Source: Candidatus Saccharimonas sp. | Lineage (GTDB): Bacteria > Patescibacteriota > Saccharimonadia > Saccharimonadales > Saccharimonadaceae | DNA: 32,000 nucleotides | Direction: 5' to 3' | Assembly (NCBI GenBank): GCA_015256915.3 | Contig: CP076101.2 | Coordinates: 180,001-212,000 of the forward strand | In this document: one piece after another, positions 1,022 through 25,159 of the stretch | How the letters are laid out: each line of letters begins with the position of its first letter | How positions within the stretch are numbered: the stretch's first letter is position 1 | The notes under the pieces: generated by a model | What the model saw: only the letters and a program-made list of their open reading frames with translations | Database searches by the model: none | Told to the model about the DNA's origin: nothing | Position numbers and translations under genes: made by a program

Positions 1022-3550
1022 ATGAAAAGATTTTGGGTTGGGTTGAAAAATAAAAAAGTTTTGATTATTTTTACTTTAATTTGTAGTTTTTTTGGGCTTA
1101 GTATTTTTTTGAATAACAATGTTTATGCTGAGAATATTGGTCAGGGAGGACAATCATTCAGAACTCAATATGAAGGTGCTTCTAAGTCTGGATGCGATTA
1201 TTTTCAAACTTATGGACCTACTGGTCAAAGACAGGAAAGTGATAGTAGTAGAGCTTGTAAAAAAGCTATTGAGGAAGGCGCATCCGGAAATGGTAAGAAA
1301 GTTACTAACGCACAAGAATGGGTTCTTCTAAGATGTGAAGCATATGGAACTCGAGGTGTAAGTATTAGTGATGGATATAGTGGAGCTACAAAAAATTCAA
1401 AAGAATGCCAAGAGGAATCTATAAAGCAGGGTTTTTCTAAGAAAGACAGTGTTGCTACTGATAAGGAAGTTACTAAAGATGCTTCAAAATCTTCATCAGA
1501 CAATAAGCCTGGTGAAGGTGATAAAGATAAAGATAAAGATAAAGATAATAAAGACAAAAATTCTTGCGCTATTGAATGGATTGGCTGGATTGTTTGCCCG
1601 ATTGTTCGTGGTTCAACTGGTGTTGTTGTTGGTCTATATAATTTTATGCAAGCTAATTTCTTAAATATTAAATCTGATCAACTTTTTTCAAATTCTGGGA
1701 AGGGCCAAGAGGCATTTAAACACTGGGTAACATTTAGAGATATTGCAAATATATTTTTTGTGATTATGATTGCGATAATAATTTTCTCGCAAGTAACTGG
1801 TGTAGGGATTTCTAACTACGGTATTAAGAAGATGCTTCCAAAAATTATTATTTATGCAATTTTAGTGAATATTTCTTGGTATATCGTTGTGATTGCTATT
1901 GATATTTCGAATATTGTTGGTAGTACTTTATTTAAGTGGCTATCAAATGATGGAAATTGGAACTTTTCTAGTGACGTCCAGAAAGAAACATCTCCTGTTG
2001 AAGGAATTTTAACAGGTACTGCAGCAACAGGTGCGCTTATCGCTGCAGGGGTTACCGCTGCTCTCGTTGGTGGAGCCACAATTCTTCTATTTATCGTCTC
2101 TGCTGCACTTGCTGTTGTAATGACTGTATTTATATTAATGATAAGGGAAGCAGCTGTTATAGTTCTTGTCGTGACTTCTCCTTTAGCTTTTGTTGCAGGA
2201 TTATTGCCAAATACAGAAGGAGTCTTCAAAAAGTGGGTCAAGCTTACAAAAAATATGCTAATAATTTACCCAATTTGTTCGTTAATAGTCGGTGGTGCTT
2301 TGTTTGTCTCTAATTTACTATATGGCGTAGTTGATGACCCTCTACTTAAAATTATTTATGGCGTTTTGCCTATATTATCGCTATTTGCAATTATTGCAGT
2401 TATTAAAACTGTACTTTCGTTTATTGATGGCTTGACTGGCGGAAATTTGCGTGGCGCTATTGACAAAATGTCTGGTAAAATTAATTCTGTTGGTCAGAAT
2501 TCAAACTGGGCCAAGGCTTCAAGAGAGAAAGCTGCAAATAGGAGTATTGCTGGAATTCCTATTGGTAAAAATGCTCGTACAGCAAAATATGAAGAGGGTC
2601 AATATAGAAGAAATCGTAATGAACTTCGAAAACTTCAAGCAAAGAGAAACCCTACCGCTTCAGATTATCGAAGAATGGGGCAACTTGGTGCTGCTATTGG
2701 TGGTTTTGAAAAAGGTCAAACCGATGGAATGGTTACTGCTATGGCTTCAGGAATTGGTAACAGTGTATCGAATGTCAATTCTGAGCTTGCAAGAATTTCG
2801 AATGTTTCTGATCCTGTTCAACAAGGTTTAATGTATAGTGCTCTTTCACAAGCAGTGACAAAATCGGGCCTTAATAGTGCTGGTCAGGCTGCTGCAATGA
2901 GTAGTATTGCTAATAGTGCTTTAAATATTGGCGATTCTGAACAGAGAAAATCTGTTGCGGCTCAAATTGCATCAAAAGCTGGTAGTGATATTAAGAAGGT
3001 TAACCCTGCTGCAGCAAAAGCAGTCATGCAAGATTTTTCTTCAGAAAATATCAAATCTGTTCAAGATTTTGAAAATGATATTTCAACATACTCAGGTGCA
3101 AGTGCTAAGCAAATGGCTGATTGGTCTGACATGTCTAGCGCAAATGTTAATGATAATAAAGCGTTTAAGGCAATGCAAAGCGCATTTAATAGTGGTGACC
3201 AAAGCAAGATTTTACAAGCACAGAATATGGGTAAGATTGCTGAGCAAGCTCTCACTGCCAATGCAAATGGAACAATGTCCCTAACGCCAGACCAGCAGGC
3301 TAACTTTATGGCGATGCAAAAGTTGGCTCAATCTCAAGCTTCACAAACGGCTGCGGATACAGCAAGCAATACTCAATATTCTACTAGTCAAAAGGTAGAA
3401 GTGAATTATCAAACTTCAGCTTCACAGCAAGATCAGAGCGGGTCGTCCACCTTTAGCTCCGATACGTATAATGCACCCCCAGCACAAGCTACTCAAGCCT
3501 CGCAGCCAATAAATAATAATAGTAGTAATCAAAATATTCAACCTCGGTAA
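1022..3550 (+). CDS. Large multi-pass membrane protein: secreted Cys-module N-domain, central TM bundle, long Q/S/A/N-rich tail (VirB6/TrbL/TcpH-like topology, homology unverified)
   Basis: 842-aa ORF. Signal peptide ends in NNNVYA/EN. The secreted ~150-aa region carries two similar C..YGxxG...C...I..G.S modules. A (DK)n linker follows, then at least 7 hydrophobic helices between about aa 185 and 480, then a ~350-aa low-complexity tail. Confidence 0.85.
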   Translation: MKRFWVGLKNKKVLIIFTLICSFFGLSIFLNNNVYAENIGQGGQSFRTQYEGASKSGCDYFQTYGPTGQRQESDSSRACKKAIEEGASGNGKKVTNAQEWVLLRCEAYGTRGVSISDGYSGATKNSKECQEESIKQGFSKKDSVATDKEVTKDASKSSSDNKPGEGDKDKDKDKDNKDKNSCAIEWIGWIVCPIVRGSTGVVVGLYNFMQANFLNIKSDQLFSNSGKGQEAFKHWVTFRDIANIFFVIMIAIIIFSQVTGVGISNYGIKKMLPKIIIYAILVNISWYIVVIAIDISNIVGSTLFKWLSNDGNWNFSSDVQKETSPVEGILTGTAATGALIAAGVTAALVGGATILLFIVSAALAVVMTVFILMIREAAVIVLVVTSPLAFVAGLLPNTEGVFKKWVKLTKNMLIIYPICSLIVGGALFVSNLLYGVVDDPLLKIIYGVLPILSLFAIIAVIKTVLSFIDGLTGGNLRGAIDKMSGKINSVGQNSNWAKASREKAANRSIAGIPIGKNARTAKYEEGQYRRNRNELRKLQAKRNPTASDYRRMGQLGAAIGGFEKGQTDGMVTAMASGIGNSVSNVNSELARISNVSDPVQQGLMYSALSQAVTKSGLNSAGQAAAMSSIANSALNIGDSEQRKSVAAQIASKAGSDIKKVNPAAAKAVMQDFSSENIKSVQDFENDISTYSGASAKQMADWSDMSSANVNDNKAFKAMQSAFNSGDQSKILQAQNMGKIAEQALTANANGTMSLTPDQQANFMAMQKLAQSQASQTAADTASNTQYSTSQKVEVNYQTSASQQDQSGSSTFSSDTYNAPPAQATQASQPINNNSSNQNIQPR
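1520..1543 (+). repeat. In-frame hexanucleotide tandem repeat (GATAAA)x4 encoding (DK)4
   Basis: Four perfect GATAAA units, then degenerate units GATAAT AAAGAC AAAAAT. Lies in the linker between the secreted head and the first TM helix of the 842-aa protein. Confidence 0.9.
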
Positions 3551-6824: not shown

Positions 6825-7499
6825 ATGAATAGATTCAAAAAAGGTGCAGTTAAAGGTTCAACAATCGCAATTATTCTGTTGAGCATCGGTTTTGCTGGTG
6901 CTGGTTCATTTGGAATTTGGGCTTACATTGAATACAATAATGTAAAAACAGATGTTGAAGGAAAGATTGATTTACAGGTTGCTGAAGGAAAACGAAAACA
7001 GCAAGAAGATGATGAAAAGAAATATAATGAAGAGCGACGAAAAACTGTTAAAGAATTTCGTGCTCCAGAAGATTTAGGAAAGGTAACTTTTAGTTATCCA
7101 ACATTTTGGAATCAATATGTTGAATCTAATGGTTCTGATCGAAAGGGGTTCTTCTCTTATTTCTATCCAGATACAGTGCCACCAGTTCCAAAAGACGGTA
7201 AAGATACTCAGCGTTTCGGTTTGCGCGTAGCTATTTATGAGAAGAGTGTAGACGAAGTTCTTAAAGAATTTAACGAAGCTATCAAAAAGGGTGAGCTTTC
7301 TTCTGAAGCCGTAACGGTTAATGGATATCCAGCAACAAAAATTGCAGGCTTATTCCCTGGGCCAGAGAAGAATAATCGAATTCGTGGAACAGCTTATTAT
7401 TTTAAATTAAACAGCAAAACTTTGATGATTCGAACTGATGCCGATACTTACAATAATGTCTTGAACGAAAATATTTTAAGCACTCTGAAAATGGATTAG
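6825..7499 (+). CDS. Hypothetical membrane-anchored (N-terminal TM) extracytoplasmic protein
   Basis: The listed ORF 6693-7499 overlaps the tRNA and the promoter, so I start it at ATG 6825 (MNRFKKGAVKGSTIAIILLSIGFAGAGSFGIWAY...). One N-terminal TM helix, a charged coiled segment, then a mixed alpha/beta domain. No motif recognised. Confidence 0.7.
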   Translation: MNRFKKGAVKGSTIAIILLSIGFAGAGSFGIWAYIEYNNVKTDVEGKIDLQVAEGKRKQQEDDEKKYNEERRKTVKEFRAPEDLGKVTFSYPTFWNQYVESNGSDRKGFFSYFYPDTVPPVPKDGKDTQRFGLRVAIYEKSVDEVLKEFNEAIKKGELSSEAVTVNGYPATKIAGLFPGPEKNNRIRGTAYYFKLNSKTLMIRTDADTYNNVLNENILSTLKMD

Positions 7500-7520
7500 C
7501 TTTCAAAAATAGCAAAAATT

Positions 7521-7529
7521 TGCTATAAT
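7521..7529 (+). promoter_or_regulatory. Extended -10 box for a leaderless histidine kinase operon
   Basis: TGcTATAAT, 6 nt before the ATG at 7536. Confidence 0.55.
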
Positions 7530-7535
7530 AAAAAT

Positions 7536-8252
7536 ATGGATGAGCGGGAGTTTTTAAATCTGGTAGCAAAAGAAAGTAGTTTTCTTATTGCTGCTCACGA
7601 GATGAAAACCCCGCTTTCAATTATTCGCCAGCTTTCTTTAACTTTAAATGATGAGGAGACTGAGCTTTCTAATTCTGAAAAAAGCCGAATTCTACGCCAA
7701 ATTGACATCACTAGTGAAAGGGCTTTGCGACTCGTTCAAGATTTAACTAGAATTTCAAAACTTGAAGATGCAATGTTCGAGCTTGAGCCTATAAATTCAA
7801 AAAAAATCTGTAATGATGTGGTTGCAGAAATTGCCGATGTCTTCAAACTTCATGGTAGAGTTATTAGGTTTAAAAATGTTCGAAAAAATGAGTTAATCAT
7901 GGCGAATTATGAATTGCTTCGTTCAATTTTGATGAACTTCTCAGATAACGCACTTTATTCTTCGAACGAAAAGAGCGAAGTTGAGATTAAAATTTCAAAT
8001 ATTGGTGAAAAAGTTCGAATTTCAGTTCGAGATTATGGCGAAGAATTACCGCTTTCAATTTGGCGTTCAATTAAAAAACAGAATCATCAGCCAGTTCGAG
8101 CGAATTCTCGGCCGCAGAGTTCTGGCTTGGGTATTTTTATTGCTCAAAGTTTTGCGGCGGCAATGGGAGCAAAAATCGGTGTGATCCGCCATCGTGATGG
8201 AAACACTTTTTATGTTGATTTAAACCGTTCTGGTCAGTTGAGTTTATTGTGA
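7536..8252 (+). CDS. Minimal cytoplasmic histidine kinase (HisKA + HATPase only; no TM or sensor domain)
   Basis: H-box AAHEMKTPLSII about 20 aa from the N-terminus; N-box MNFSDNALYSS; G-boxes RDYGEELP and SGLGIFIAQSF. 238 aa. TGA stop. Confidence 0.85.
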   Translation: MDEREFLNLVAKESSFLIAAHEMKTPLSIIRQLSLTLNDEETELSNSEKSRILRQIDITSERALRLVQDLTRISKLEDAMFELEPINSKKICNDVVAEIADVFKLHGRVIRFKNVRKNELIMANYELLRSILMNFSDNALYSSNEKSEVEIKISNIGEKVRISVRDYGEELPLSIWRSIKKQNHQPVRANSRPQSSGLGIFIAQSFAAAMGAKIGVIRHRDGNTFYVDLNRSGQLSLL

Positions 8253-8614
8253 AAAAAATTTTAATTATTGAAGATAATACAATCTTGGCAGATAATTTTG
8301 AAATAATTTTGCGTTCAAATTTTTTAATTTCAAAAGTTAATTCTGCGCAAAAAGCAATCTTAGAGATTGATAGAAGTTTACCAGACTTAATTTTTCTCGA
8401 TATTTTGCTTGAAGGGCATTCTGCTTTTGCTCTTTTAAATGAATTACAGAGCTATGCCGATACGGCAAAAATTCCAGTGGTGATTTGCTCAGACTTAGCA
8501 AGTGAAATAGATTTCGAAAGTTTAAAATTGTTCAATGTTCGCCATATTTTTGATAAATCTCAGGTTTCACCAAAAGAAATTCGCACAAAAATCAAGGAGA
8601 TTTTAGATGAATAA
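8249..8614 (+). CDS. Single-domain response regulator (receiver only)
   Basis: The GTG start overlaps the kinase stop (GTGA at 8249-8252). Acidic pair IIEDN, phospho-acceptor LIFLDILL, conserved S (VICSD) and K (FDKS). No output domain. Confidence 0.85.
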   Translation: MKKILIIEDNTILADNFEIILRSNFLISKVNSAQKAILEIDRSLPDLIFLDILLEGHSAFALLNELQSYADTAKIPVVICSDLASEIDFESLKLFNVRHIFDKSQVSPKEIRTKIKEILDE

Positions 8615-9278
8615 TTCACGCAAAAAAACTCTGGCTATAGTTTTGCGGCGAACTGATTTTGGCGAGGCCGACCGGATTGTAAATTTATTAACTCCAAATG
8701 GTAAACAGGTGGCAATTGCGCGTGGCGTTCGAAAACCAAAATCAAAGCTTGCTGGTGGAATTGAGTTTTTTTCGCTAAATGAAGTGGTTTTAATTGAAGG
8801 AAAAAGCGAAATGAAAACGCTTTCTTCAGCGAGAATGTGCGAGTTTTTTGGTGAAATTTTAAAAGATTTTGAAAGAACTGATTTTGCCTACCAAGCAATT
8901 AAAAAGGTTTCGAATCTTTGCGAACATATTGAATCGGTTGAATTTTTCGAAATTTTGTTAAAAGTCTTTCGCAGTTTGAATGATTTTGGAATCAGCTTAG
9001 ATTTGGTTCGAAAATGGTTTATTCTTAAAATCGCAGAATTTTCTGGCGATGAAATTAATCTTGAAACAGATAAAAATGGCAAGAAATTGCAGGAAAATTT
9101 AAGGTATGATTTTGATTTTTATGATAAGGTTTTTGTTGAAAGTTTTAGCGGTAAATTTGATGCAAATGATATTAAATTTTTGCGACTAATGGTTTCAAGC
9201 GAGCCAAAAGTTGTTTCAAAAATTAAAGGTTGTGACATTTTTTTGAACAAAATTGAAGAGATAATCCCAAGATTTTAA
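8607..9278 (+). CDS. recO: DNA repair protein RecO
   Basis: The N-terminal OB-fold signature AIVLRRTDFGEADRIVNLLTPNGKQVAIARGVRKPKSKL is classic RecO. The ATG overlaps the regulator gene by 8 nt, and an SD AAGGAG sits at 8594-8599. Confidence 0.85.
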   Translation: MNNSRKKTLAIVLRRTDFGEADRIVNLLTPNGKQVAIARGVRKPKSKLAGGIEFFSLNEVVLIEGKSEMKTLSSARMCEFFGEILKDFERTDFAYQAIKKVSNLCEHIESVEFFEILLKVFRSLNDFGISLDLVRKWFILKIAEFSGDEINLETDKNGKKLQENLRYDFDFYDKVFVESFSGKFDANDIKFLRLMVSSEPKVVSKIKGCDIFLNKIEEIIPRF

Positions 9279-9327
9279 AATAGGCTTTTGAAAGTCTATT
9301 TTTGTTATTTACTTTTAAAAAAGAAAG

Positions 9328-9336
9328 TGGTATAAT
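9328..9336 (+). promoter_or_regulatory. Extended -10 box upstream of the surface protein gene
   Basis: TGgTATAAT, then a 43-nt leader with an SD GGGAG (9370-9374) 5 nt before the ATG at 9380. Confidence 0.5.
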
Positions 9337-9379
9337 AATTTTAAGCATAAGTGTTTATATAATTAAAAAGGGAGAAAAA

Positions 9380-10684
9380 ATGAATTTTCGAAGTAAAATA
9401 ACAATTTTTATTCTTGCTGCGTTATTCTCAATAGTTAGCTTTGGCTCTTCTGCCTTTGCTGCCAAGGACATAACCAGCCAGCTAAAGATTGAGCCTAAGA
9501 GCATTAAGAGTAGCGGGCGCGAGTGGTCGATCGACATTTCTGGCCAGAATGTTAAAGAAGGGGACTGGGCGGCTTTTCGTGCTGAAAATATATCGTTGAT
9601 TCCGGGTAATAGTGTTGACTTGAAATACAAGAATGATAAAATTGGTATTATTTCTGTAGATAAGATTTATAGTGATGGGCACGGATTGAACGTTTCAAGT
9701 GTTGTTCGTAATGATGAAAATGCCAAACCAGGATCTACTGTCTGGCAGGGGAAAATTGTTTTCAATAAGAATATTGAAAAATATGCCGATTTTAAAACCT
9801 CTATTTCTAACAATAATACTAATTATTTCTCATATGTAAATCGTGATGTTACTGTAGAAACTAAAATTATTGGTAGCACTACTTTAAAAGGTGAAGATGT
9901 TAAACTCACTAAACAGCCTCTGATAAATATAAACAAGACAACTACCGGTCTTAGTGGGGCTCAATTTAATTCTAATAGTGGTGGTTCTGTCTTTGGTCCA
10001 ACTATAGTTTATTCTAAGAATGACCCTATCAAGGCTGGCTCTAAGATTAAAATTACTATGACCGAAGATTCTTCGATCCGTTTTGATGATAAGACTTATC
10101 CTGTTGGCTCGACTGTATTGTTAAACAGAATGCGTGAAAGTATAACCGCTTCCACCCCTGTAAATAAATATGGTGTTTACTTTGTTGGTGGACCTTCTAT
10201 GGAGTTAAAGGTTGTTTCTCGCTCTGAGACCGAGATAGTTCTTGAATTTGTTAAAGATGCACCCGCAGTAGACGGTATCTATAGGGGCTGGATTTCTTCT
10301 ATAAAAGTGGTAGATGGTTCGGCTATTAAAAACGGAACTATCAATGATGTTAAACATATAGTTGATTTAGTTGCACCTAACGGAAATACTATTGATAAGA
10401 GGGGATTCAATGGAAGTGCGCCGATATTTGGTAGCAACGTAGAAACCTATGCCAAAATCCGCAAGCCGGAAGCAAAGCCACAAAAACCTGCACCTGTACC
10501 AACTCCAGCTCAACCGCAACCGGCTGTTGAGGTTTCAAAAGATGAAAAGCCTTCATCATCAAAAGTTCAAGCTCCAAACACTGGTTTTGAAAAATCTCAA
10601 AATTTCATTATTCTAGCTTTTGCCATTTTGGGTGTAACTACTGCAGTAGTTTTTCGCAAAAAATTGGCAAAAATAAAAATCTAA
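9380..10684 (+). CDS. Cell-surface protein with signal peptide and C-terminal sortase-type sorting signal (APNTG + TM + basic tail)
   Basis: Start moved to ATG 9380 (MNFRSKITIFILAALFSIVSFGSSAFA/AKD). Pro-rich stalk KPEAKPQKPAPVPTPAQPQPA. C-terminus is QAPNTG-FEKSQNFIILAFAILGVTTAVVF-RKKLAKIKI. Confidence 0.8.
   Translation: MNFRSKITIFILAALFSIVSFGSSAFAAKDITSQLKIEPKSIKSSGREWSIDISGQNVKEGDWAAFRAENISLIPGNSVDLKYKNDKIGIISVDKIYSDGHGLNVSSVVRNDENAKPGSTVWQGKIVFNKNIEKYADFKTSISNNNTNYFSYVNRDVTVETKIIGSTTLKGEDVKLTKQPLININKTTTGLSGAQFNSNSGGSVFGPTIVYSKNDPIKAGSKIKITMTEDSSIRFDDKTYPVGSTVLLNRMRESITASTPVNKYGVYFVGGPSMELKVVSRSETEIVLEFVKDAPAVDGIYRGWISSIKVVDGSAIKNGTINDVKHIVDLVAPNGNTIDKRGFNGSAPIFGSNVETYAKIRKPEAKPQKPAPVPTPAQPQPAVEVSKDEKPSSSKVQAPNTGFEKSQNFIILAFAILGVTTAVVFRKKLAKIKI
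10566..10584 (+). repeat. 19-nt exact repeat, copy 1 (encodes the QAPNTG sorting motif)
   Basis: TTCAAGCTCCAAACACTGG is identical to 20763-20781. Confidence 0.9.
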
Positions 10685-13580: not shown

Positions 13581-14264
13581 ATGATATTATTAGATCGTGT
13601 GACAAAAGTTTATGGTAATTCAAAAACTCCTGCGATTAACAGGGTTAGCCTTCATATTAAGCCAAAAGAGTTTGTTATTTTGGTTGGAACGAGTGGTGCG
13701 GGAAAATCCTCACTTTTAAAAATGCTCACTCGTGAAGAAAAACAAACCAGCGGTAAAATTGTTGTTGGTGGAATTGATTATGACAAATTGCGAGATAAGG
13801 ATATTCCACTTTTGCGGCGCCGAATTGGTGTGATTTTTCAAGATTTTAAGCTTTTGCCAAATCGAACCGTTTTCGAAAATGTAGCTTTTGCGCTTGAAAT
13901 TGCCGGAATGACTAATCATGAGATTAAAGCGACTGTTCCAAAAGTTATTAAACTTGTTGGTCTTGAAGGAAAAGAGGGAAATTTTCCACATCAGTTAAGT
14001 GGTGGTGAAAGGCAACGTGTAGCGATTGCCCGGGCAATCGCTCGCCAGCCAAAAATTCTAATTGCCGATGAGCCAACAGGGAATCTTGACCCAAAGCATA
14101 GTTGGGACATTATTAGACTACTTGAAAAAATTAATGATTACGGAACAACAGTTGTCTTAACTACGCATAATGTTGAAATTGTAAATAAACTTAAACGGCG
14201 TGTAATTACCTTAAATGGTGGAAAAATTACTCACGACCAATCACAAGGGGAGTATAGGCAATAA
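13581..14264 (+). CDS. ftsE: Cell-division ABC ATPase FtsE
   Basis: Walker A GTSGAGKSS, signature LSGGERQRVAIARA, Walker B ILIADEPTGNLD. About 227 aa and followed by ftsX. The start could instead be GTG 13578. Confidence 0.9.
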   Translation: MILLDRVTKVYGNSKTPAINRVSLHIKPKEFVILVGTSGAGKSSLLKMLTREEKQTSGKIVVGGIDYDKLRDKDIPLLRRRIGVIFQDFKLLPNRTVFENVAFALEIAGMTNHEIKATVPKVIKLVGLEGKEGNFPHQLSGGERQRVAIARAIARQPKILIADEPTGNLDPKHSWDIIRLLEKINDYGTTVVLTTHNVEIVNKLKRRVITLNGGKITHDQSQGEYRQ

Positions 14265-15295
14265 TGAGAGAGGAAAATTTAAAACATCATAAAATTAAAG
14301 GCTCTCAAGTGCAGCAAGGTAGAAAAAAACAAAATTCGAAAGTTATTATGCAACATAAACAGCGTCGCCGCAAAACTTTAACTCTTTGGCGAATTACAAA
14401 ATATGGTGCAAATAGCTTTGTTCGAAATGCTTGGCTTTCGGTTGCCGCAACTGCTGTGATGACTGTTACTTTGGTGATTATTTTTGGTTCACTCCTTGCA
14501 CGTTCAATTTTGATGGATACGGTTGATGACATTAAAAATAAAGTCGATATGTCTATCTATCTTAAAAAAGGTGTTTCAAATTCTGATATTTTAAAAATGC
14601 AAAAAGCAATTAAAGATTTACCTTCAGTTACAGATATAACATACATTTCACCACAAGAGGCACGTGATAGATTTGCTCGAAAAAATTCGGCTGATGCGGA
14701 TATTCGAAAAGCCTTAATTGAATCGAACAATGAATTTTTTGGAATTTTTAATGTTAAACTTGTGGATATTTCGAATTCAACAGAGTTAAAAAATCTTGTT
14801 GAAAATAATAAGCTAATTAAATCAAATCTCGATCCAGATCATCCACCAACATATGCAAGTGATCGAAACGAGATTATTAAAAATATCTCAAATACAATTA
14901 ATTTTGCTGAAAAAGTTGGAATTTTAGCTGGCTCAATTTTTGTAATCATTGCTAGTTTAATTATTTTTAATACAATTCGAATGGCTATTTTTAACCGTAG
15001 AGAAGAGATTTATATGATGAAATTAATTGGTGCAAATAAAAGTTTTATTGCTGGACCATTTTTGGTTGAAGCAGTGATTTGTGGAACAATCGCAGCAATT
15101 TTAGCCTCAATAATTGGCTATACTATAATTTTTCTTTCGAAATCTCGGCTCGAAGCTTATGGAATTATCATTTCGCCTGTAATTTCATTCTTGCAAGTTT
15201 ATGGATTTTTGGTTGTTCTGGGGCTGGTAGTTGTTGGTTCATTTATTGGCGTTGTTTCAGCATTTACGGCAACAAGAAAATATCTAAAAATATAG
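14264..15295 (+). CDS. ftsX: Cell-division permease-like protein FtsX
   Basis: The start overlaps the ftsE stop (TAATG). Basic N-terminus, TM1, a ~130-aa extracellular loop, then three C-terminal TM helices (FtsX topology). Confidence 0.85.
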   Translation: MREENLKHHKIKGSQVQQGRKKQNSKVIMQHKQRRRKTLTLWRITKYGANSFVRNAWLSVAATAVMTVTLVIIFGSLLARSILMDTVDDIKNKVDMSIYLKKGVSNSDILKMQKAIKDLPSVTDITYISPQEARDRFARKNSADADIRKALIESNNEFFGIFNVKLVDISNSTELKNLVENNKLIKSNLDPDHPPTYASDRNEIIKNISNTINFAEKVGILAGSIFVIIASLIIFNTIRMAIFNRREEIYMMKLIGANKSFIAGPFLVEAVICGTIAAILASIIGYTIIFLSKSRLEAYGIIISPVISFLQVYGFLVVLGLVVVGSFIGVVSAFTATRKYLKI

Positions 15296-20632: not shown

Positions 20633-21343
20633 ATGCAAGATCTAAAACTCAAAAAGCTTATCTGTCTAGATAAGCCTGCAGAAAACAATTTGGTTTCTGC
20701 AGCTCCATCTCCAACGGATAGAAAAACAGAAACTGTAGCTGCTCAACCAGCTCCAAAAAATATTCAAGCTCCAAACACTGGGGCACAAAACACAACAGGA
20801 ATTATTGCAACGATCCTTGTTCTAGCTCTAATCCTTGGACTAACAACTCTCATTACTTCAAAGCTAGGTAAGAAATCTAAAAAGATTATTCTTTCAATCT
20901 TCATGCTAGCTACAGCTACATTTGGTGGAATTAATGCTTTTTCAAAACTTTCTTACGCCGAAACCCTAGTTGACGGCAAACCTTGCCAAACTACTGGTTA
21001 CACTGACTACGAGGTTGGGGCGAATGTTACTGTGGGCATTAATATTGACGCATCTTACAACAAACCACAGCTTTTCATAAAAGTCAAAGGAACTGGCGAT
21101 CCAGAAAAAGACAAAGCAGCTCTAGCCGCAGAGATTGACAAGCTAAAAGATGACAAGGAATTGCTTAATAGTGTTATAAGAAATTTTAAAGAGAGCAATC
21201 CTACATCAGATATTGTTGCTGAAAAATTTAAAGGAAGATTTAAACAGGACATTTCTAAATCTCCAAAACAAGACGAGGAAAAGCAGATATATCAGATTTA
21301 TGCCGATTTTACAGCTTCCCGAATTTCTCGGCCACCACAATAA
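20633..21343 (+). CDS. Chimeric exported protein: N-terminal Pro-rich stalk + QAPNTG sorting signal fused in frame to a second signal-peptide-like segment and a ~135-aa domain
   Basis: 236-aa ORF. Residues ~20-85 (AAPSPTDRKTETVAAQPAPKNIQAPNTG-AQNTTGIIATILVLALILGLTTLITS-KLGKKSKK) have the layout of a sortase-substrate C-terminus. Next comes IILSIFMLATATFGGINAFSKLSYA/ET, which looks like a signal peptide. A weak SD GGTGG lies 12 nt upstream of the ATG. Confidence 0.6.
   Translation: MQDLKLKKLICLDKPAENNLVSAAPSPTDRKTETVAAQPAPKNIQAPNTGAQNTTGIIATILVLALILGLTTLITSKLGKKSKKIILSIFMLATATFGGINAFSKLSYAETLVDGKPCQTTGYTDYEVGANVTVGINIDASYNKPQLFIKVKGTGDPEKDKAALAAEIDKLKDDKELLNSVIRNFKESNPTSDIVAEKFKGRFKQDISKSPKQDEEKQIYQIYADFTASRISRPPQ
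20763..20781 (+). repeat. 19-nt exact repeat, copy 2 (encodes the QAPNTG sorting motif)
   Basis: TTCAAGCTCCAAACACTGG is identical to 10566-10584. Confidence 0.9.
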
Positions 21344-21360
21344 TCTTAATAACTATCAAA

Positions 21361-21390
21361 AATAGCACCAAAGGGTGTTATTTTTATTTT
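21361..21390 (+). terminator. Rho-independent terminator after the chimeric exported protein gene
   Basis: 9-bp stem AATAGCACC/GGTGTTATT (one G-U pair), loop AAAG, T-rich tail TTTTTATTTT. Confidence 0.65.
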
Positions 21391-21397
21391 GCGTTTA

Positions 21398-21406
21398 TGC
21401 TATAAT
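21398..21406 (+). promoter_or_regulatory. Extended -10 box for the leaderless two-gene cassette
   Basis: TGcTATAAT, 7 nt before the ATG at 21414. Confidence 0.55.
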
Positions 21407-21413
21407 ATATTAC

Positions 21414-22490
21414 ATGGAAGATGAAATTAGAACTGGATATTCAGAAAATACCGAAAACAAACAATACGAAATAGAAGAAAAAAACCACGAGGTTGAATTT
21501 TCTTTAGAGAAAGACGACTCGACTGATATTTTTCAATGGGCGAATTTAACAGATGGAATTAAGGGTGAGCTTGATGTAGAATTTTTCTTATTTAATAAAA
21601 ATTTTGTGCCTTTTACAACTAGTTTTTCAAGCGAATTGAACTCGCAAATTAAGCCGTTGTTTTTGTTTGATATGATTAATTTCGTAAATATGGGTGCAGG
21701 AACTGGTTTGAGCGTGCGAGACTATGAAATGGATGGTGGCGCGGGCAAAGATGTGCTTTTAAAAACTGAACTACAAAAAGTTCAACACGCTAATGCGCTA
21801 TTAAATATAATTGAAACGCAATATTCCGACATTGTGGAATTTAATGAAAACGAACATGATTTTAAGCGGATTAAAGGAATTTTGGCAAGGTTTACAAATT
21901 CGAAAGGCGAGAAATTTTATGTTGCTAAACAAATTATGCAAGGGCAGGTTTTGCGCGGAGCAACAGCTTGGGAATTTCGAAATGGTAAATTTGGTGCATT
22001 TGAGCCTGAATTTGGTTTAAAAATCCAGCCAGATAATCAAGTTTTGATCGTAAATAATGATATTTTTATTTTCAATCAAGGAAAATTTGAAAAACTCTTT
22101 AATTACGATTATAAAAAACAAGTTTTAGCTGATAAAAAAGTTTTGGAAATCGAAAGAAAGTATAAATTGAGTTTTCCTGATGGTTTAGATTTGCAAACTT
22201 TGGTTCGCGAGCATAAAAAGGCTGCTACGAAATTACAAAAAATGGATGAAATTGGTGAAATTTCGCAAGAAAAAGTGGTTGAATACGCCGATGAAATGCA
22301 GCTTGAATTAATGACGGACGACAACGGTGCAATCATTATTATGGATAGTAACGATTTAGATATGTTCGTGAATTTAATTAATGAAGATTACATCTTGAGC
22401 GAAATCACTGGTCGCCGTTATGAAATTAAAAGCAAAAAGTTGCTCGACGACCCAGAAGGTGAACCGCCACGAATGATCGGAAGCGAGTAG
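21414..22490 (+). CDS. Uncharacterised 358-aa cytoplasmic protein (possibly DUF4868/KwaB-like; unverified)
   Basis: Start moved to ATG 21414, because the listed 21375 start lies inside the terminator and promoter. Acidic N-terminal ~45 aa; no TM helix and no catalytic motif that I recognise. The C-terminal half (..VLIVNNDIFIFNQGKFEKLFNYDYKK.. ; ..LINEDYILSEITGRRYEIKSKK) resembles my memory of the DUF4868 layout. Confidence 0.8.
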   Translation: MEDEIRTGYSENTENKQYEIEEKNHEVEFSLEKDDSTDIFQWANLTDGIKGELDVEFFLFNKNFVPFTTSFSSELNSQIKPLFLFDMINFVNMGAGTGLSVRDYEMDGGAGKDVLLKTELQKVQHANALLNIIETQYSDIVEFNENEHDFKRIKGILARFTNSKGEKFYVAKQIMQGQVLRGATAWEFRNGKFGAFEPEFGLKIQPDNQVLIVNNDIFIFNQGKFEKLFNYDYKKQVLADKKVLEIERKYKLSFPDGLDLQTLVREHKKAATKLQKMDEIGEISQEKVVEYADEMQLELMTDDNGAIIIMDSNDLDMFVNLINEDYILSEITGRRYEIKSKKLLDDPEGEPPRMIGSE

Positions 22491-22499
22491 TTTTCGAAA

Positions 22500-24047
22500 A
22501 TGAAGCAAGCGTTAGCACTAGAGATTATGCTCTCAGGCGAAAATGTTTTTTTAACTGGTGCAGCGGGAAGTGGAAAAACTTTCACACTTAACCAGTTTAT
22601 TAAGCTTGCAAAAAATTCTGGAAAAAAGGTTAGCGTTACGGCTACCACTGGTTTAGCGGCAACTCATCTTGGAGGAAACACTATTCACGCTTGGAGCGGA
22701 ATTGGAATTTATGATTATCTTTCGAAAAAATTTTTTGAAAAATTCCCAAAAACGCGGGCTGAAATTATTAAAAATACAGATATTCTGGTTGTTGATGAAA
22801 TTTCTATGTTGCATGATTTTCGACTAGACATGGTTGAAGAAATTTGTCGCACAATTCGCCAAAATGATAAACCTTTCGGTGGAATTCAGATAATTTTATG
22901 TGGTGATTTTTTTCAGCTACCGCCAATTAACCGAGCTGGTGGGCGAACTGGTGGTTTTGCGATTCATTCGAATGCCTGGAAGCTTGCCAAATTTACGATT
23001 TGCTATCTTGAGGAAAATCACCGTCAAAAAAATGATGAACTATCTGAAATTTTAAACGCACTTAGAGCGGATGATTTACGTCGAAAGCACGCTCAAAGTT
23101 TGCTTGATCGCATTGATGTTGAGCTCAGTTTTAAAAGTGATGATTTTTCGAAAAACTTAACCGAACTCCACACTACTAATATAGATGTTGATAAAATAAA
23201 TGAACAAAAACTTACCGAACTTGAAGGTGAGGAGTTTCATTTTGCGCAAACCACAACTGGTGCGAAAAACTATATTGAAACTTTACAGAAGTCTGTTCTT
23301 GCGCCGGAACTATTGCGACTCAAAAAAGGTGCTTTAGTGATGGCAGTAAAAAATGCCCAAAACCGCCAATACGTGAACGGTTCAATTGGAGAAGTTATTG
23401 ATTTTGAAAGATCAACAGATTACCCAATTGTTCAATTTCGAAATGGCAAAATTATTACAATGGTGCCAGAAACTTGGGAGATGCGTGATGGTGAAAAAAA
23501 GCGAGCAAGTATTATGCAAATTCCACTCCGGCTGGCATATGCAATTACGGTTCATAAAAGTCAAGGAATGACACTCGATGCCGCTCGAATCGACCTTCGA
23601 AAAGCCTTTTCTGAAGGAATGGGTTATGTGGCACTTTCTCGTGTTCGCTCTCTTGATAGACTTTATTTGCTTGGAATAAATCGCACTGCTTTGATGGTTA
23701 GTGAAGAAGCGCGGAAGATTGATTTTATACTTAAAAATGAAAGTTTAAAAGCCGAAAAGCGTTTTTCGCACTTAAAAGAAGTTGCTAAAAAGCGTGAAGC
23801 AGGCGAAATTGTTGAGGTACAACCATCAAAAACAACTTGGGCTGAAAAGCTTGAAAAAATGCGGCAAGAATATCCAAATGCGTATCGTGCGTGGAGACTT
23901 GTTGATGATTCGAAATTACAAGAAATGGTTTTCGAAAATGGCAAAATTGATGCAGATTTAATTGCTAAATTGAGTAAAGAACTAGGCCGTCACAAAGGCT
24001 CGATTGTAGCTCGCATAAAAAAACTCTTTGGCGAAGATGCTATATAA
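22500..24047 (+). CDS. Pif1/RecD-family SF1B DNA helicase with a C-terminal HTH-like extension
   Basis: Motif I GAAGSGKT, Ia TATTGLAA, II LVVDEISM, III ILCGDFFQLPP; late motifs AITVHKSQGMT and GYVALSRVRS. About 110 aa extra at the C-terminus (..YRAWRLVDDSKLQEM....IAKLSKELGRHKGSIVARIKKL). Starts 9 nt after the upstream gene. Confidence 0.9.
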   Translation: MKQALALEIMLSGENVFLTGAAGSGKTFTLNQFIKLAKNSGKKVSVTATTGLAATHLGGNTIHAWSGIGIYDYLSKKFFEKFPKTRAEIIKNTDILVVDEISMLHDFRLDMVEEICRTIRQNDKPFGGIQIILCGDFFQLPPINRAGGRTGGFAIHSNAWKLAKFTICYLEENHRQKNDELSEILNALRADDLRRKHAQSLLDRIDVELSFKSDDFSKNLTELHTTNIDVDKINEQKLTELEGEEFHFAQTTTGAKNYIETLQKSVLAPELLRLKKGALVMAVKNAQNRQYVNGSIGEVIDFERSTDYPIVQFRNGKIITMVPETWEMRDGEKKRASIMQIPLRLAYAITVHKSQGMTLDAARIDLRKAFSEGMGYVALSRVRSLDRLYLLGINRTALMVSEEARKIDFILKNESLKAEKRFSHLKEVAKKREAGEIVEVQPSKTTWAEKLEKMRQEYPNAYRAWRLVDDSKLQEMVFENGKIDADLIAKLSKELGRHKGSIVARIKKLFGEDAI

Positions 24048-24088
24048 AGTAGATTTTTAGTTAATTTATTTTAAAATTAATTGAGTGC

Positions 24089-24125
24089 AAAAGACTTTCG
24101 AAAATTCGAGAGTCTTTTAGTTTTG
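24089..24125 (+). terminator. Strong terminator after the helicase gene
   Basis: AAAAGACT/AGTCTTTT outer stem, extended by inner TTCGAA/TTCGAG pairing, then a T-rich tail. Confidence 0.75.
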
Positions 24126-24286: not shown

Positions 24287-24315
24287 TTGACTTTTTAAAA
24301 AACTTATGCTATTAT
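24287..24315 (+). promoter_or_regulatory. Promoter of the lysine-rich small membrane protein gene
   Basis: TTGACT (24287-24292), 17-nt spacer, TGcTATTAT (24307-24315). About a 50-nt leader, with AAGGA 5 nt before the ATG at 24372. Confidence 0.55.
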
Positions 24316-24371
24316 ATAAACATAAAAAACAATTAAGATCAAATAAGTCAAATAAACAAAAAAGGAAAAAA

Positions 24372-24677
24372 ATGACAAAAAAACAAACAGAAACAAAAAT
24401 TGCTAAAAAAACTACAGCTAAAAAAGTTGCTGAAAAAACTACAAAAGTTTCAAAAAAAGAGCAAGATATTAAAAAAGCTAAAACTTTGCTTACAAATAAT
24501 GGAATTATTATCGCTGAAGATGGAACAGTAGTGGTTGACCAAGTTACGCAAGATTTTCGAAGTGCAGTTTTAGTTCTTTCACTTGCAATCAATCTTGTTG
24601 TATTTGTAACATATTTGATTCTAATGTCTACAACAAAATATGATACTGCATTAATTAGCGCATTATTGCCACGATAA
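24372..24677 (+). CDS. Small (101 aa) protein: lysine-rich N-terminal tail + single C-terminal TM helix
   Basis: Start moved to ATG 24372. MTKKQTETKIAKKTTAKKVAEKTTKVSKKEQDIKKAK (histone-H1-like composition), then a short domain and the TM helix AVLVLSLAINLVVFVTYLILM. Confidence 0.65.
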   Translation: MTKKQTETKIAKKTTAKKVAEKTTKVSKKEQDIKKAKTLLTNNGIIIAEDGTVVVDQVTQDFRSAVLVLSLAINLVVFVTYLILMSTTKYDTALISALLPR

Positions 24678-24705
24678 ATTAGTTTTCAACAATTAAACAC
24701 AAGCA

Positions 24706-24764
24706 TTGTGGAAAAGCGGGGAATATCTGTTAAAAGGCTTGCTTTTCCACATAGTTGTGGAAAA
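24706..24764 (+). repeat. Three GTGGAAAA boxes (two direct TTGTGGAAAA copies flanking one inverted copy)
   Basis: TTGTGGAAAA at 24706-24715 and at 24755-24764. GCTTTTCCAC at 24741-24750 forms a 10-bp inverted repeat with GTGGAAAAGC at 24708-24717. Confidence 0.6.
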
Positions 24765-25159
24765 ATATATAAAAAATTATTTCTAAATTTGCGTGTTTGT
24801 CAAAAATAGGTCTTGCGAAAAAAAATAATTCGCGGTAAACTTAAATCAGTGGCAACGACAGAAACAAACAGAAAAACCACTAAACAAAAATAAAAGCACG
24901 TTAAAATAGATGTAGTTTTTAGTTTAAGGTCAACTATCTGGTGATTAAACAGCTGGACAAATTCCAGTAACCAGGTTAAAATAATAGCTGGAGCACATTT
25001 TAAAACCTCCCAAAATAAAACTCCACCTCATATATAAGTCTCTCAAACAGCAATATGGTTGGCTATACGCCAAGCAAGAAGCTAAACTTATAATGAATCT
25101 TAAAACAAAAATATAACAAAAACAAAAAGTTTAATCATCAGTTAGGTGGCTTTAAATTT

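Follow-up and report, generated by a model that had tools for sequence, protein, structure and literature searches.

A KwaB-family gene without KwaA and a Pif1 helicase gene form a conserved pair in Saccharibacteria

Layout of the two-gene unit

We analyzed a 32,000-nt stretch of the genome of Candidatus Saccharimonas sp. (contig CP076101.2, positions 180,001 to 212,000), hereafter the window, whose own numbering is used throughout. Two genes lie on its forward strand with a spacer of 9 nt (22491–22499), as the first-pass annotation of this DNA had noted. The unit is made up as follows.

21358..21385, forward strand: terminator-like hairpin with T-run; 12 pairs (3 G-C), loop 4, tail ATTTTGCGTT
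21398..21406, forward strand: extended -10 promoter TGcTATAAT, 7 nt 5' of the gene 1 ATG
21414..22490, forward strand: gene 1, 358-aa KwaB-family protein with an N-terminal Rossmann-like domain and DUF4868, without KwaA partner
22500..24047, forward strand: gene 2, 515-aa Pif1-family SF1B DNA helicase
24089..24118, forward strand: intrinsic terminator at the end of the two-gene unit; 13 pairs, loop 4, tail AGTTTTGATT

The start of gene 1 was placed at ATG 21414 because all orthologues begin with 'ME' there; the mechanical ORF opens earlier, at GTG 21375. The 5' region of gene 1 has no Shine-Dalgarno sequence. Twenty relatives (13 loci with full-length matches among L005–L030, together with L018, L019, L021–L023, and L027) retain the arrangement TGnTA(T/A)AAT-N7-8-ATG despite unrelated upstream DNA, which supports a presumably leaderless mRNA for the two genes, as had been proposed. 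The TGcTATAAT site lacks a -35 element and for that reason was missed by a generic -35/-10 scan. In more distant species, TGCTACAAT is present about 30 nt upstream, together with a GAAAG leader.

Strong terminators had been claimed on both sides of the pair. This holds for the downstream one, with its 13 pairs, but the upstream hairpin is weaker, with only 3 G-C among 12 pairs. The latter closes the upstream gene for a 236-aa membrane protein and would shield gene 1 from upstream transcription; it was kept along with the promoter in L005–L007 only. No mobility genes were found near the pair in the window, GC content showed no compositional break across the pair, and an Rfam scan of the window gave tRNA-Phe as the sole match.

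Assignment of the two proteins

A likeness of gene 1 to DUF4868, pointed out in the first-pass annotation, was confirmed. The protein matched Pfam KwaB (PF16162) with E=5.2e-11 and 43.3 bits, above the 26.3-bit cut-off, and nine PADLOC KwaB models, the best of which (1.7e-12) spanned aa 112–344. KwaB was not found in the PDB with the gene 1 sequence alone or with a profile of the shallow clade alignment (A1), whereas the broader family profile (A2) matched KwaB 9o0i/9mrx with E=5e-16 over residues 30–316 of 321. The AF2 model from a 39-sequence alignment reached a pLDDT of 84.5 and replaced an earlier, unusable model from 13 close sequences (pLDDT 56). When this model was compared with the PDB by Foldseek, KwaB structures alone were significant (E=5.7e-13, 321 columns). 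Pfam, PADLOC, PDB profile search, and Foldseek all identify gene 1 as a KwaB-family protein over its full length. It has the two-domain architecture and full-length fold of Kiwa KwaB (PF16162/DUF4868; PDB 9mrx, 9mtn, 9nyu, 9o0i), whereas its identity to E. coli KwaB is about 15%, with a TM-score of only 0.41–0.48. Against the NCBIfam KwaB equivalog NF041623 it scored 53.2 bits (E=2.5e-14), below the 200-bit cut-off. Three regions of the protein were delimited.

21414..21521, forward strand: acidic, disordered, hypervariable N-terminal tail (aa 1–36; pLDDT <50; pI 4.2)
21867..22409, forward strand: match to DUF4868, the C-terminal, DNA-binding domain of KwaB (aa 152–332; profile positions 3–186 of 186)
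22452..22472, forward strand: peptide PEGEPPR in the disordered C-terminal tail, invariant in alignment A1

No Pfam domain was found in the N-terminal half. The acidic N-terminus had already been noticed; across the clade this tail is about 5–45 aa long, it is exchanged by recombination, and in alignments of close relatives it holds nearly all gene 1 differences. The C-terminal PEGEPPR/EPPRG occurs only in the chromosomal Saccharimonadia clade and in P0121 and P0127, and was not found in phage copies, Kiwa KwaB, or the L093 lineage. These clade-specific tails distinguish gene 1 from Kiwa KwaB. In an approximate mapping, made by hand from the HMM alignment and the contact list of the Kiwa paper, basic residues fall at or beside four of the six AF3-predicted DNA contacts of KwaB (R142 to R181, R167 to K203, K187 to K224, R233 to K273). 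The whole protein is strongly acidic (pI 4.7), like Kiwa KwaB and most family members. Its acidity, with DNA binding being putative, was counted against a role in DNA maintenance; as an argument against DNA binding itself it was rejected, since the canonical members linked to Kiwa are just as acidic.

According to the Kiwa paper, KwaB binds ssDNA and dsDNA without cleavage, stalls forks, and requires KwaA for defense. Kiwa has KwaA, a four-transmembrane membrane sensor, whereas gene 1 lacks such a partner, in agreement with the first reading: KwaA models (PF28043 and PADLOC) matched neither the flanking proteins nor any sizeable window ORF scanned, and tblastn with Saccharibacterial KwaA gave nothing significant in the window and no match in loci L001–L084. 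KwaA was detectable where it is present (L088/L138).

Gene 2 matched Pfam PIF1 (PF05970) with E=3.4e-39 (135 bits; cut-off 25.9 bits), and its 2B/SH3-like insertion at aa 258–302 matched Pif1_2B_dom (PF21530; 1.5e-5, 25.0 bits; cut-off 23.9 bits). Solved Pif1 structures, bacterial ones included, were matched at E=1e-34 to 8e-74; among PDB sequences, yeast PIF1 (8e-74) and human PIF1 (1.6e-63) matched best. The full SF1B/Pif1 motif set seen earlier was located, that is, motifs I, Ia, II, III, IV, V, and VI and the Pif1 signature. Gene 2 encodes a genuine Pif1-family SF1B helicase. A motif search placed the first five of the following features.

22557..22580, forward strand: Walker A
22788..22808, forward strand: motif II
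22827..22883, forward strand: Pif1 signature
22902..22925, forward strand: motif III
23550..23573, forward strand: motif VI
23697..24044, forward strand: basic C-terminal extension (aa 400–515, ~115 aa, pI 9.3), kept in Saccharimonadia

In its full motifs, signature, and 2B/SH3 domain, gene 2 resembles yeast Pif1/Rrm3, human PIF1, and the Pif1 helicases of Bacteroides and thermophiles; unlike other Pif1 helicases, it bears the basic C-terminal extension, which has no Pfam match. The extension had been described as HTH-like. Neither HTH_40 (PF14493) nor any other Pfam domain was found in aa 391–515 at E≤10, and a tri-helical class is on record for the Southlakia orthologue only (residues 436–505, ECOD 'tri-helical'; Wang et al. 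2023, Table S2).

The pair shares a two-gene layout of helicase plus second protein with Hachiman HamAB, Gabija GajAB, and the PADLOC candidates PDC-S68 and PDC-M16A. PADLOC called no complete defense system and found no homologues of HamA, HamB, or GajA in the pair; its GajB matches of gene 2 were marginal (E=0.003–0.008) and confined to the Walker A region. The ATPase core of gene 2 gave partial PADLOC matches to the RecD/Pif1-like helicases of PDC-S68 and PDC-M16A; these proteins are much longer, and the matches are limited to their generic SF1 core. No dedicated KwaB-like neighbor of other Pif1 helicases is described in the literature searched, and our searches (Pif1 with Saccharibacteria, DUF4868) returned no description of the pair, so that the combination appears to be undescribed, as had been suspected.

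Conservation and genomic context

The pair is present in nearly all Saccharibacteria examined. At least 310 GTDB species representatives encode a relative, and all of these are Saccharimonadia-type genomes. Among the 80 loci examined, a set made up of the window's best matches and so biased towards closer relatives, Pif1 lies on the same strand downstream of the KwaB-like gene in 70 of the 72 species loci that could be evaluated. The two genes are thus co-conserved, and in distant lineages adjacency was seen in either order. In 37 loci the gap is below 60 nt, the genes being directly adjacent (4–28 nt). The pair belongs to a backbone conserved across the class Saccharimonadia, RecO-aaRS-...-KwaB-like-Pif1-...-RsmH-FtsI (MraZ/RsmH in the region), which contains many DNA-repair genes (XseAB, RecO, RNase HI); RNase HI is directly upstream in 22 of the 80 loci. 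The first-pass annotation had placed the pair outside conserved housekeeping synteny and suggested variable islands. This is wrong for the pair, whose chromosomal position is fixed in those 70 loci, and applies only to the small flanking genes (the 236-aa membrane protein and the region 5' of gene 1), which vary even among close relatives. By its core, not island-like, distribution the pair differs from helicase-plus-partner defense systems. Its flanks are an insertion hot spot: in L138 they host a canonical Kiwa together with a Zeta-toxin-like gene, and in L094 a prophage has its integration site there.

One to three unrelated genes, in some cases of opposite orientation, stand between the KwaB-like gene and Pif1 in roughly a third of the species (prephenate dehydratase and dehydrogenase, pilin-like proteins, DUF4419, HD-domain protein). 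They were considered as defense genes and rejected, their products being metabolic, pilin-like, or otherwise non-defense. L037, L040, and L138 have no Pif1 nearby. These intervening genes and the three loci indicate that strict operonic coupling is not required. In two distant lineages the two genes remain adjacent, beside RNase HI, with their order reversed: L093 has RNaseH-Pif1-small ORF-KwaB-like, and in Southlakia SEML1_0262 is RNase HI, 0264 Pif1, and 0265 DUF4868. Pif1 of L093 is a 412-aa protein without the C-terminal extension. L085 (47% identity) has CYTH-KwaB-like-Pif1. In L002, Pif1 is followed by a 340-aa gene, which was considered as a second DUF4868 copy and is not one.

In distant species, the KwaB-like protein had a median identity of 69.8% to its counterpart in the window, compared with 61.2% for Pif1, 56.4% for RsmH, 47.9% for FtsI, 41.0% for RecO, and 71.4% for L27. 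The dN/dS of the gene 1 protein body was about 0.03, against 0.05–0.08 for neighbors. By these estimates, gene 1 is the slowest-evolving sizeable gene of the neighborhood, and its body is under strong purifying selection. The gene 1 lineage is vertical, syntenic, and slowly evolving, whereas Kiwa KwaB travels on mobile elements: the Kiwa paper reports 53% of Kiwa loci on such elements and a patchy spread driven by HGT. A patchy, HGT-type distribution, taken as a test for Kiwa membership, was not seen for gene 1, and its linkage to Pif1 and RNase HI is likewise unlike Kiwa KwaB.

Saccharibacteria phages carry KwaB-like genes within Exo-RecT-SSB recombination modules. The order SSB-KwaB-like was found in 30 of 43 phage contigs (L095–L137), and other phages have ERF-RNaseT-...-KwaB-like and SSB-VRR_NUC-...-KwaB-like. 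No Pif1 was found on the KwaB-like phage contigs. The phage protein matched no PHROGs family, and tblastn gave no match in 50,697 deposited phage genomes. The viral scan was run with alignment A1, as the wide alignment A2 had no conserved stretch. The position of these genes is analogous to that of gam in lambda exo-bet-gam, an analogy of gene position only, there being no sequence relationship to Gam. Lambda Gam itself binds KwaB, according to the Kiwa paper.

Possible roles of the pair

Both genes of the pair were non-essential in Southlakia Tn-seq, as was RecF at early passages. This non-essentiality, the KwaB fold over both domains, the basic residues near four of the six predicted contacts, the adjacency that outlasts a change of gene order, the repair-rich backbone, and the recombination-module context in phages were counted for a role in DNA maintenance. 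The near-universal fixed distribution and slow evolution make DNA maintenance likelier than a mobile defense cassette. Given the synteny, the slow evolution, and the non-defense intervening genes, defense is no longer the best-supported reading.

We favor, at about an even chance, a vertically inherited, lineage-wide module of Saccharibacteria (TM7), in which a KwaA-independent KwaB-family protein and Pif1, often with RNase HI, act in replication, recombination, or repair. By analogy with KwaB, the KwaB-like protein would bind DNA non-specifically as a dimer via the DUF4868 channel, with stalled forks, DNA ends, and ssDNA/dsDNA junctions as likely substrates. It may recruit, or be cleared by, the 5'-3' Pif1 helicase, RNase HI would remove RNA:DNA hybrids, and the three together would process replication/recombination intermediates or incoming transforming DNA. 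A docking function is proposed for the invariant EPPRG peptide at the C-terminus, possibly towards the tri-helical domain at the Pif1 C-terminus, and a regulatory or autoinhibitory one for the hypervariable acidic tail at the N-terminus.

A wider proposal is more tentative. The KwaB family may consist of older DNA- or fork-binding factors that are not intrinsically immune; Saccharibacteria would keep a housekeeping form, either ancestral or domesticated, that acts alongside Pif1 and RNase HI, phages would carry copies as recombination accessories, and Kiwa would be a membrane-tethered (KwaA) derivative. Through the present finding, the KwaB/DUF4868 family would gain a context outside Kiwa, namely a core KwaA-less Saccharibacteria form linked to Pif1 and RNase HI, as well as phage-borne copies within recombination modules. 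This bears on the origin of defense effectors from housekeeping DNA-binding proteins, or domestication into them, on the roles and partners of bacterial Pif1 helicases, and on DNA upkeep and policing in ultra-small episymbionts with reduced repair systems. If the wider proposal is true, a major CPR lineage without much of the classical repair toolkit would possess, in this pair, a previously unrecognized module for genome maintenance or intrinsic immunity. The question is directly testable, as Southlakia and Nanosynbacter are already open to genetic tools and Tn-seq, and a candidate family of phages has been identified.

A lineage-fixed, KwaA-independent immune or DNA-surveillance module is a rather unlikely alternative to maintenance. 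Here the KwaB-like protein would bind invading phage, plasmid, or transforming DNA and block its replication as in Kiwa, Pif1 would be a co-effector or clear the host chromosome of KwaB-like roadblocks, and an arms race with phage inhibitors would account for the hypervariable N-terminal tail. Every characterized family member is an anti-phage effector, and that Kiwa KwaB is the sole such member was counted against maintenance; the dispensability of both genes in co-culture Tn-seq also suits immunity, and that neutral fitness fits defense equally well was likewise counted against maintenance. The promoter-terminator unit, the recombination-exchanged tail, and the insertion hot spot at the flanks suit immunity too, and the phage homologues could be decoys or superinfection-exclusion genes. 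However, near-universal single-locus vertical inheritance with ribosomal-protein-like identity and such low dN/dS is the opposite of Kiwa's pattern. The sensor that published KwaB needs is missing, gene 1 scores far under the equivalog cut-off, PADLOC calls no complete system, the intervening genes are non-defense, and the phage copies sit in recombination modules, not moron positions.

It is improbable that the two are independent genes, with Pif1 a general accessory helicase, the KwaB-like protein in an unrelated role, and their proximity due merely to conserved gene order. Saccharibacteria genomes are highly syntenic overall, which is compatible with passive linkage and was counted against maintenance. 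The entire RecO-aaRS-...-MraZ/RsmH-FtsI region is syntenic across the class, unrelated genes intervene in about one third of species, three loci have no Pif1 nearby, and the phage copies occur without it. Against this stand the direct adjacency in 37 species within, here, one promoter and terminator unit, the survival of adjacency through order reversal in two distant lineages, and the joint presence or absence of the EPPRG tail and the Pif1 C-terminal extension, which concerns two lineages only.

The self-contained, mobile accessory two-gene cassette of a variable island, put forward in the first-pass annotation as a candidate new defense system, is very improbable. In its favor, the small flanking genes vary even among close relatives; the pair itself proved to be essentially syntenic core genes, with a constant chromosomal position, uniform GC content, no mobility genes near it in the window, and strong purifying selection on the body of gene 1.

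A KwaB-like gene followed by a Pif1 helicase gene

The window has a low GC content (~35%) and is Saccharibacteria (TM7) DNA, and the genomes nearest to it are MAGs from mouth and gut that carry the labels Candidatus Saccharimonas and Nanogingivalaceae. The pair and its signals are as follows.

Features of the KwaB-like/Pif1 pair (window positions)
21358-21385, upstream of gene 1: weak hairpin (3 G-C pairs) with T-run
21398-21406, + strand: promoter element TGcTATAAT, 7 nt to the ATG of gene 1
21414-22490, + strand: gene 1, KwaB-like protein (358 aa), ATG start
22452-22472: PEGEPPR peptide, aa 347-353 of gene 1, invariant, in the predicted disordered C-terminal tail
22500-24047, + strand: gene 2, Pif1 helicase (515 aa), 9 nt after gene 1
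24089-24118, downstream of gene 2: hairpin (13 pairs) with T-run

The resemblance of gene 1 to DUF4868 that the first-pass annotation had suggested was right and spans the whole protein. Gene 1 matched the Pfam family PF16162 'KwaB' above the cut-off (E=5.2e-11) and nine KwaB models of PADLOC (best 1.7e-12), with coverage of up to aa 61-345. A profile of the 39-sequence family matched the KwaB chains 9o0i and 9mrx in the PDB (~5e-16, residues 30-316 of 321). The AF2 model built from the 39-sequence alignment had a pLDDT of 84.5, and its significant Foldseek matches in the PDB were solely KwaB structures (E=5.7e-13 over 321 aligned columns, with TM-scores of 0.41-0.48). However, gene 1 is far from characterised KwaB (~15% identity) and scored 53 bits against the NCBIfam KwaB equivalog, whose cut-off is 200 bits. 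Basic residues of gene 1 (R181, K203, K224, and K273) lie at or adjoining four of the six AF3-predicted DNA contacts of KwaB, in a mapping made by hand that is approximate at such divergence.

Gene 2 is unambiguously a Pif1-family SF1B helicase by its sequence. It matched Pfam PIF1 (E=3.4e-39) along with the 2B domain of Pif1, and, among PDB sequences, yeast PIF1 (8e-74), human PIF1 (1.6e-63), and several Pif1 structures from bacteria. All of motifs I, Ia, II, III, IV, V, and VI were found, as was the Pif1 signature. Its C-terminus is a basic extension of ~115 aa; an HTH_40 domain had been suggested here, but the extension had no Pfam match. Wang et al. 2023 (PMC10633639, Table S2) place the C-terminus of the orthologue in Southlakia epibionticum, a cultivated Saccharibacterium, among the tri-helical folds of ECOD.

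The KwaB-like protein has a disordered C-terminal peptide, (D/E)P(E/A)(G/A)EPPRG, which is invariant in the chromosomal Saccharimonadia clade and restricted to it. Phage copies and Kiwa KwaB do not have the peptide, and neither does the lineage of locus L093, in which Pif1 also lacks the C-terminal extension. This comparison, of two lineages only, hints that the peptide may be a partner-docking motif.

No Shine-Dalgarno sequence was seen before the ATG of gene 1. The arrangement TGnTA(T/A)AAT-N7-8-ATGGA is kept in 20 relatives (the 13 full-length-match loci L005-L030 plus L018, L019, L021-L023, and L027), and the DNA further 5' is unrelated between subgroups. This conservation gives good comparative support for a leaderless gene 1 transcript. 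More distant species have TGCTACAAT ~30 nt upstream instead, plus a leader containing GAAAG. A longer GTG-initiated ORF was ruled out as gene 1 because all orthologues begin with 'ME' at the ATG.

The 5' end of gene 1 (21358-21521) is a mosaic. Its upstream hairpin, promoter, and acidic N-terminal tail (aa 1-36) follow the type found in L005-L007, and the protein body and flanking genes follow that of L008-L014. Close relatives differ in amino acids almost solely within this tail. The pattern suggests a recombination breakpoint within the tail.

Relatives in Kiwa loci and phages

KwaB of the Kiwa anti-phage system is a dimer that binds ssDNA and dsDNA non-specifically, has no nuclease activity, and makes phage replication forks stall; defence requires the membrane sensor KwaA, and lambda Gam inhibits KwaB (bioRxiv 10.1101/2023.02.26.530102). 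Kiwa is patchy and spread by HGT, with ~53% of cases on mobile elements (bioRxiv 10.1101/2023.02.26.530102). Among the flanking proteins and the sizeable window ORFs that were scanned with PF28043 or the PADLOC models there was no KwaA, and tblastn with a Saccharibacterial KwaA gave no significant match in the window. Canonical Kiwa is present in one Saccharibacterium, as KwaA (PF28043) and a KwaB with 31% identity to gene 1, inserted directly after the aaRS gene; another KwaB-like gene lies a few kb further downstream. In this locus (L138, same contig as L088), Kiwa (7466-8945) is followed by a Zeta-toxin-like gene and then by the divergent KwaB-like gene (14202-15281).

KwaB-like genes are common in phages. 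Copies with ~41% identity to gene 1 were found in 43 IMG/VR contigs (L095-L137, e.g. L104:7980-8966) of a temperate phage family with genomes of ~27-52 kb and a GC content of 45-48%. The layout is integrase-...-Exo-RecT-SSB-small ORF-KwaB-like-...-VRR-NUC-TerS-TerL; other phages have ERF-RNase T-...-KwaB-like or SSB-VRR-NUC-...-KwaB-like. None of the phages with the KwaB-like gene had Pif1. Contig L094 (4533-7517) holds a prophage of this family with 93% nucleotide identity to L104, and the similarity stops 3 nt before a host cluster of RNase HI, KwaB-like (63%), and Pif1. The phages of this family are therefore phages of Saccharibacteria. The phage protein fell into no PHROGs family and had no counterpart among deposited phage genomes; in BFVD, the fold is shared by two proteins of uncultured Siphoviridae. 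Recurrent placement in recombination/replication modules suggests that this branch of the family acts in DNA transactions, and a function as decoy or in superinfection exclusion is also possible.

Distribution, linkage, and possible roles of the pair

When one genome per GTDB species was scanned, at least 310 proved to encode a relative of gene 1. Homologues at 63-94% identity were abundant, all from Saccharibacteria or Patescibacteria. Synteny was counted in the best 80 of these loci, 72 of which had enough flanking DNA. In 70 of these 72, Pif1 lay downstream in the same orientation: 37 loci had a gap of <60 nt, 21 had one of 60-1000 nt, and 12 had one of 1-2.5 kb. In L037 and L040, Pif1 was absent within 10 kb. 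The conserved order is (XseAB)-HK-RR-RecO-aaRS-(RNase HI/CYTH)-KwaB-like-(0-3 variable genes)-Pif1-...-(MraZ)-RsmH-FtsL-FtsI. The window keeps this backbone, with FtsEX-CHAP-CtpA-RR-L27-methyltransferase inserted upstream. Where the pair is split in other species, the intervening genes are of ordinary kinds and encode prephenate dehydratase and dehydrogenase, pilin-like proteins, DUF4419, and an HD-domain protein. Median identity to the window in the distant group was 69.8% for the KwaB-like protein, 61.2% for Pif1, 64.5% for aaRS, 56.4% for RsmH, 47.9% for FtsI, 41.0% for RecO, and 71.4% for ribosomal protein L27. From relatives at dS ~1.1-1.6 (L005, L007, L018, L019), dN/dS was ~0.03 for gene 1, 0.074-0.083 for Pif1, 0.078-0.083 for RsmH, and 0.050-0.085 for FtsI.

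Gene 1 places a KwaB-family protein in the core genome, outside Kiwa and linked to a helicase; we do not class the pair as a new defence system. Our best reading, to which we give about an even chance, is that gene 1 encodes a KwaA-independent, DNA-binding partner of Pif1 and often of RNase HI, whose gene directly precedes the KwaB-like one in 22 of the 80 loci. The partners would act on intermediates of replication or recombination, or on DNA entering the saccharibacterial cell. In Southlakia Tn-seq, Pif1 and the DUF4868 gene were called non-essential throughout the three passages, their read counts staying flat, and RNase HI dropped to a growth defect by passage 2, with similar behaviour of RecF (Wang et al. 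2023, PMC10633639, Table S1). The module is therefore conditionally useful, not essential, which fits repair/recombination and, equally well, defence.

The main alternative is a lineage-fixed intrinsic immunity module, which we regard as rather unlikely. The precedent of the family, the dispensability of the pair, the hypervariable, recombining N-terminal tail, and the insertion-prone flanks are in its favour; against it, gene 1 is core, slow-evolving, and without KwaA. Passive synteny of unrelated genes is more doubtful still. The linkage would be more than inertia, judging from gene order in more distant lineages: L085 (47% identity) has CYTH-KwaB-like-Pif1 with a gap of 1 nt, L093 (45% identity) has the reversed order RNase H-Pif1-small ORF-KwaB-like, and Southlakia epibionticum, also reversed, has RNase HI (SEML1_0262), a hypothetical gene, Pif1 (0264, K15255), and the DUF4868 gene (0265) (Wang et al. 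2023, PMC10633639). On the other hand, the linkage is loose in about one-third of species, and the divergent KwaB-like gene of L138 lies beside NUDIX and RNase HI genes with no Pif1 nearby. The mobile accessory-island cassette originally proposed is highly improbable, since the fixed position, slow evolution, and ordinary intervening genes mark the two as syntenic core genes in relatives, a finding that the first-pass annotation had itself named as grounds for refuting the idea.

A literature search found no mention of Pif1 together with Saccharibacteria, and none of the papers listed for DUF4868 described its pairing with Pif1; the Southlakia gene is named just 'hypothetical/DUF4868' in the supplement (Wang et al. 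2023, PMC10633639). With its putative function, the pair offers a testable lead on the roles of KwaB-fold proteins and bacterial Pif1 helicases.

Neighboring genes

A gene for a 236-aa membrane/surface protein (20633-21343), which had no match in Pfam, PADLOC, or NCBIfam, changes position: in the window and L007 it precedes the pair, and in L005, L006, and L020 it comes after Pif1. It went undetected in L008-L019, whose gene 1 has up to 3.2 kb of other DNA on its upstream side. Most Saccharibacteria loci have MraZ ahead of RsmH, but it is absent from the window and L005-L030. There, RsmH is preceded instead by a lysine-rich, conserved 123-aa membrane protein with flanking AT-rich non-coding DNA (24306-24677 and 24678-25159 in the window; GC ~28%). 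Two large ORFs of 842 aa (1022-3550) and 460 aa (9302-10684) had no Pfam match at E<=0.001. The 408-aa protein adjoining the L27 gene (19280-20506, - strand) had sub-threshold matches only, to families of DNA and RNA methyltransferases (N6_N4_Mtase, UPF0020). It is kept at 49-98% identity in syntenic position across Saccharibacteria, and is probably an RNA methyltransferase with no part in restriction-modification.
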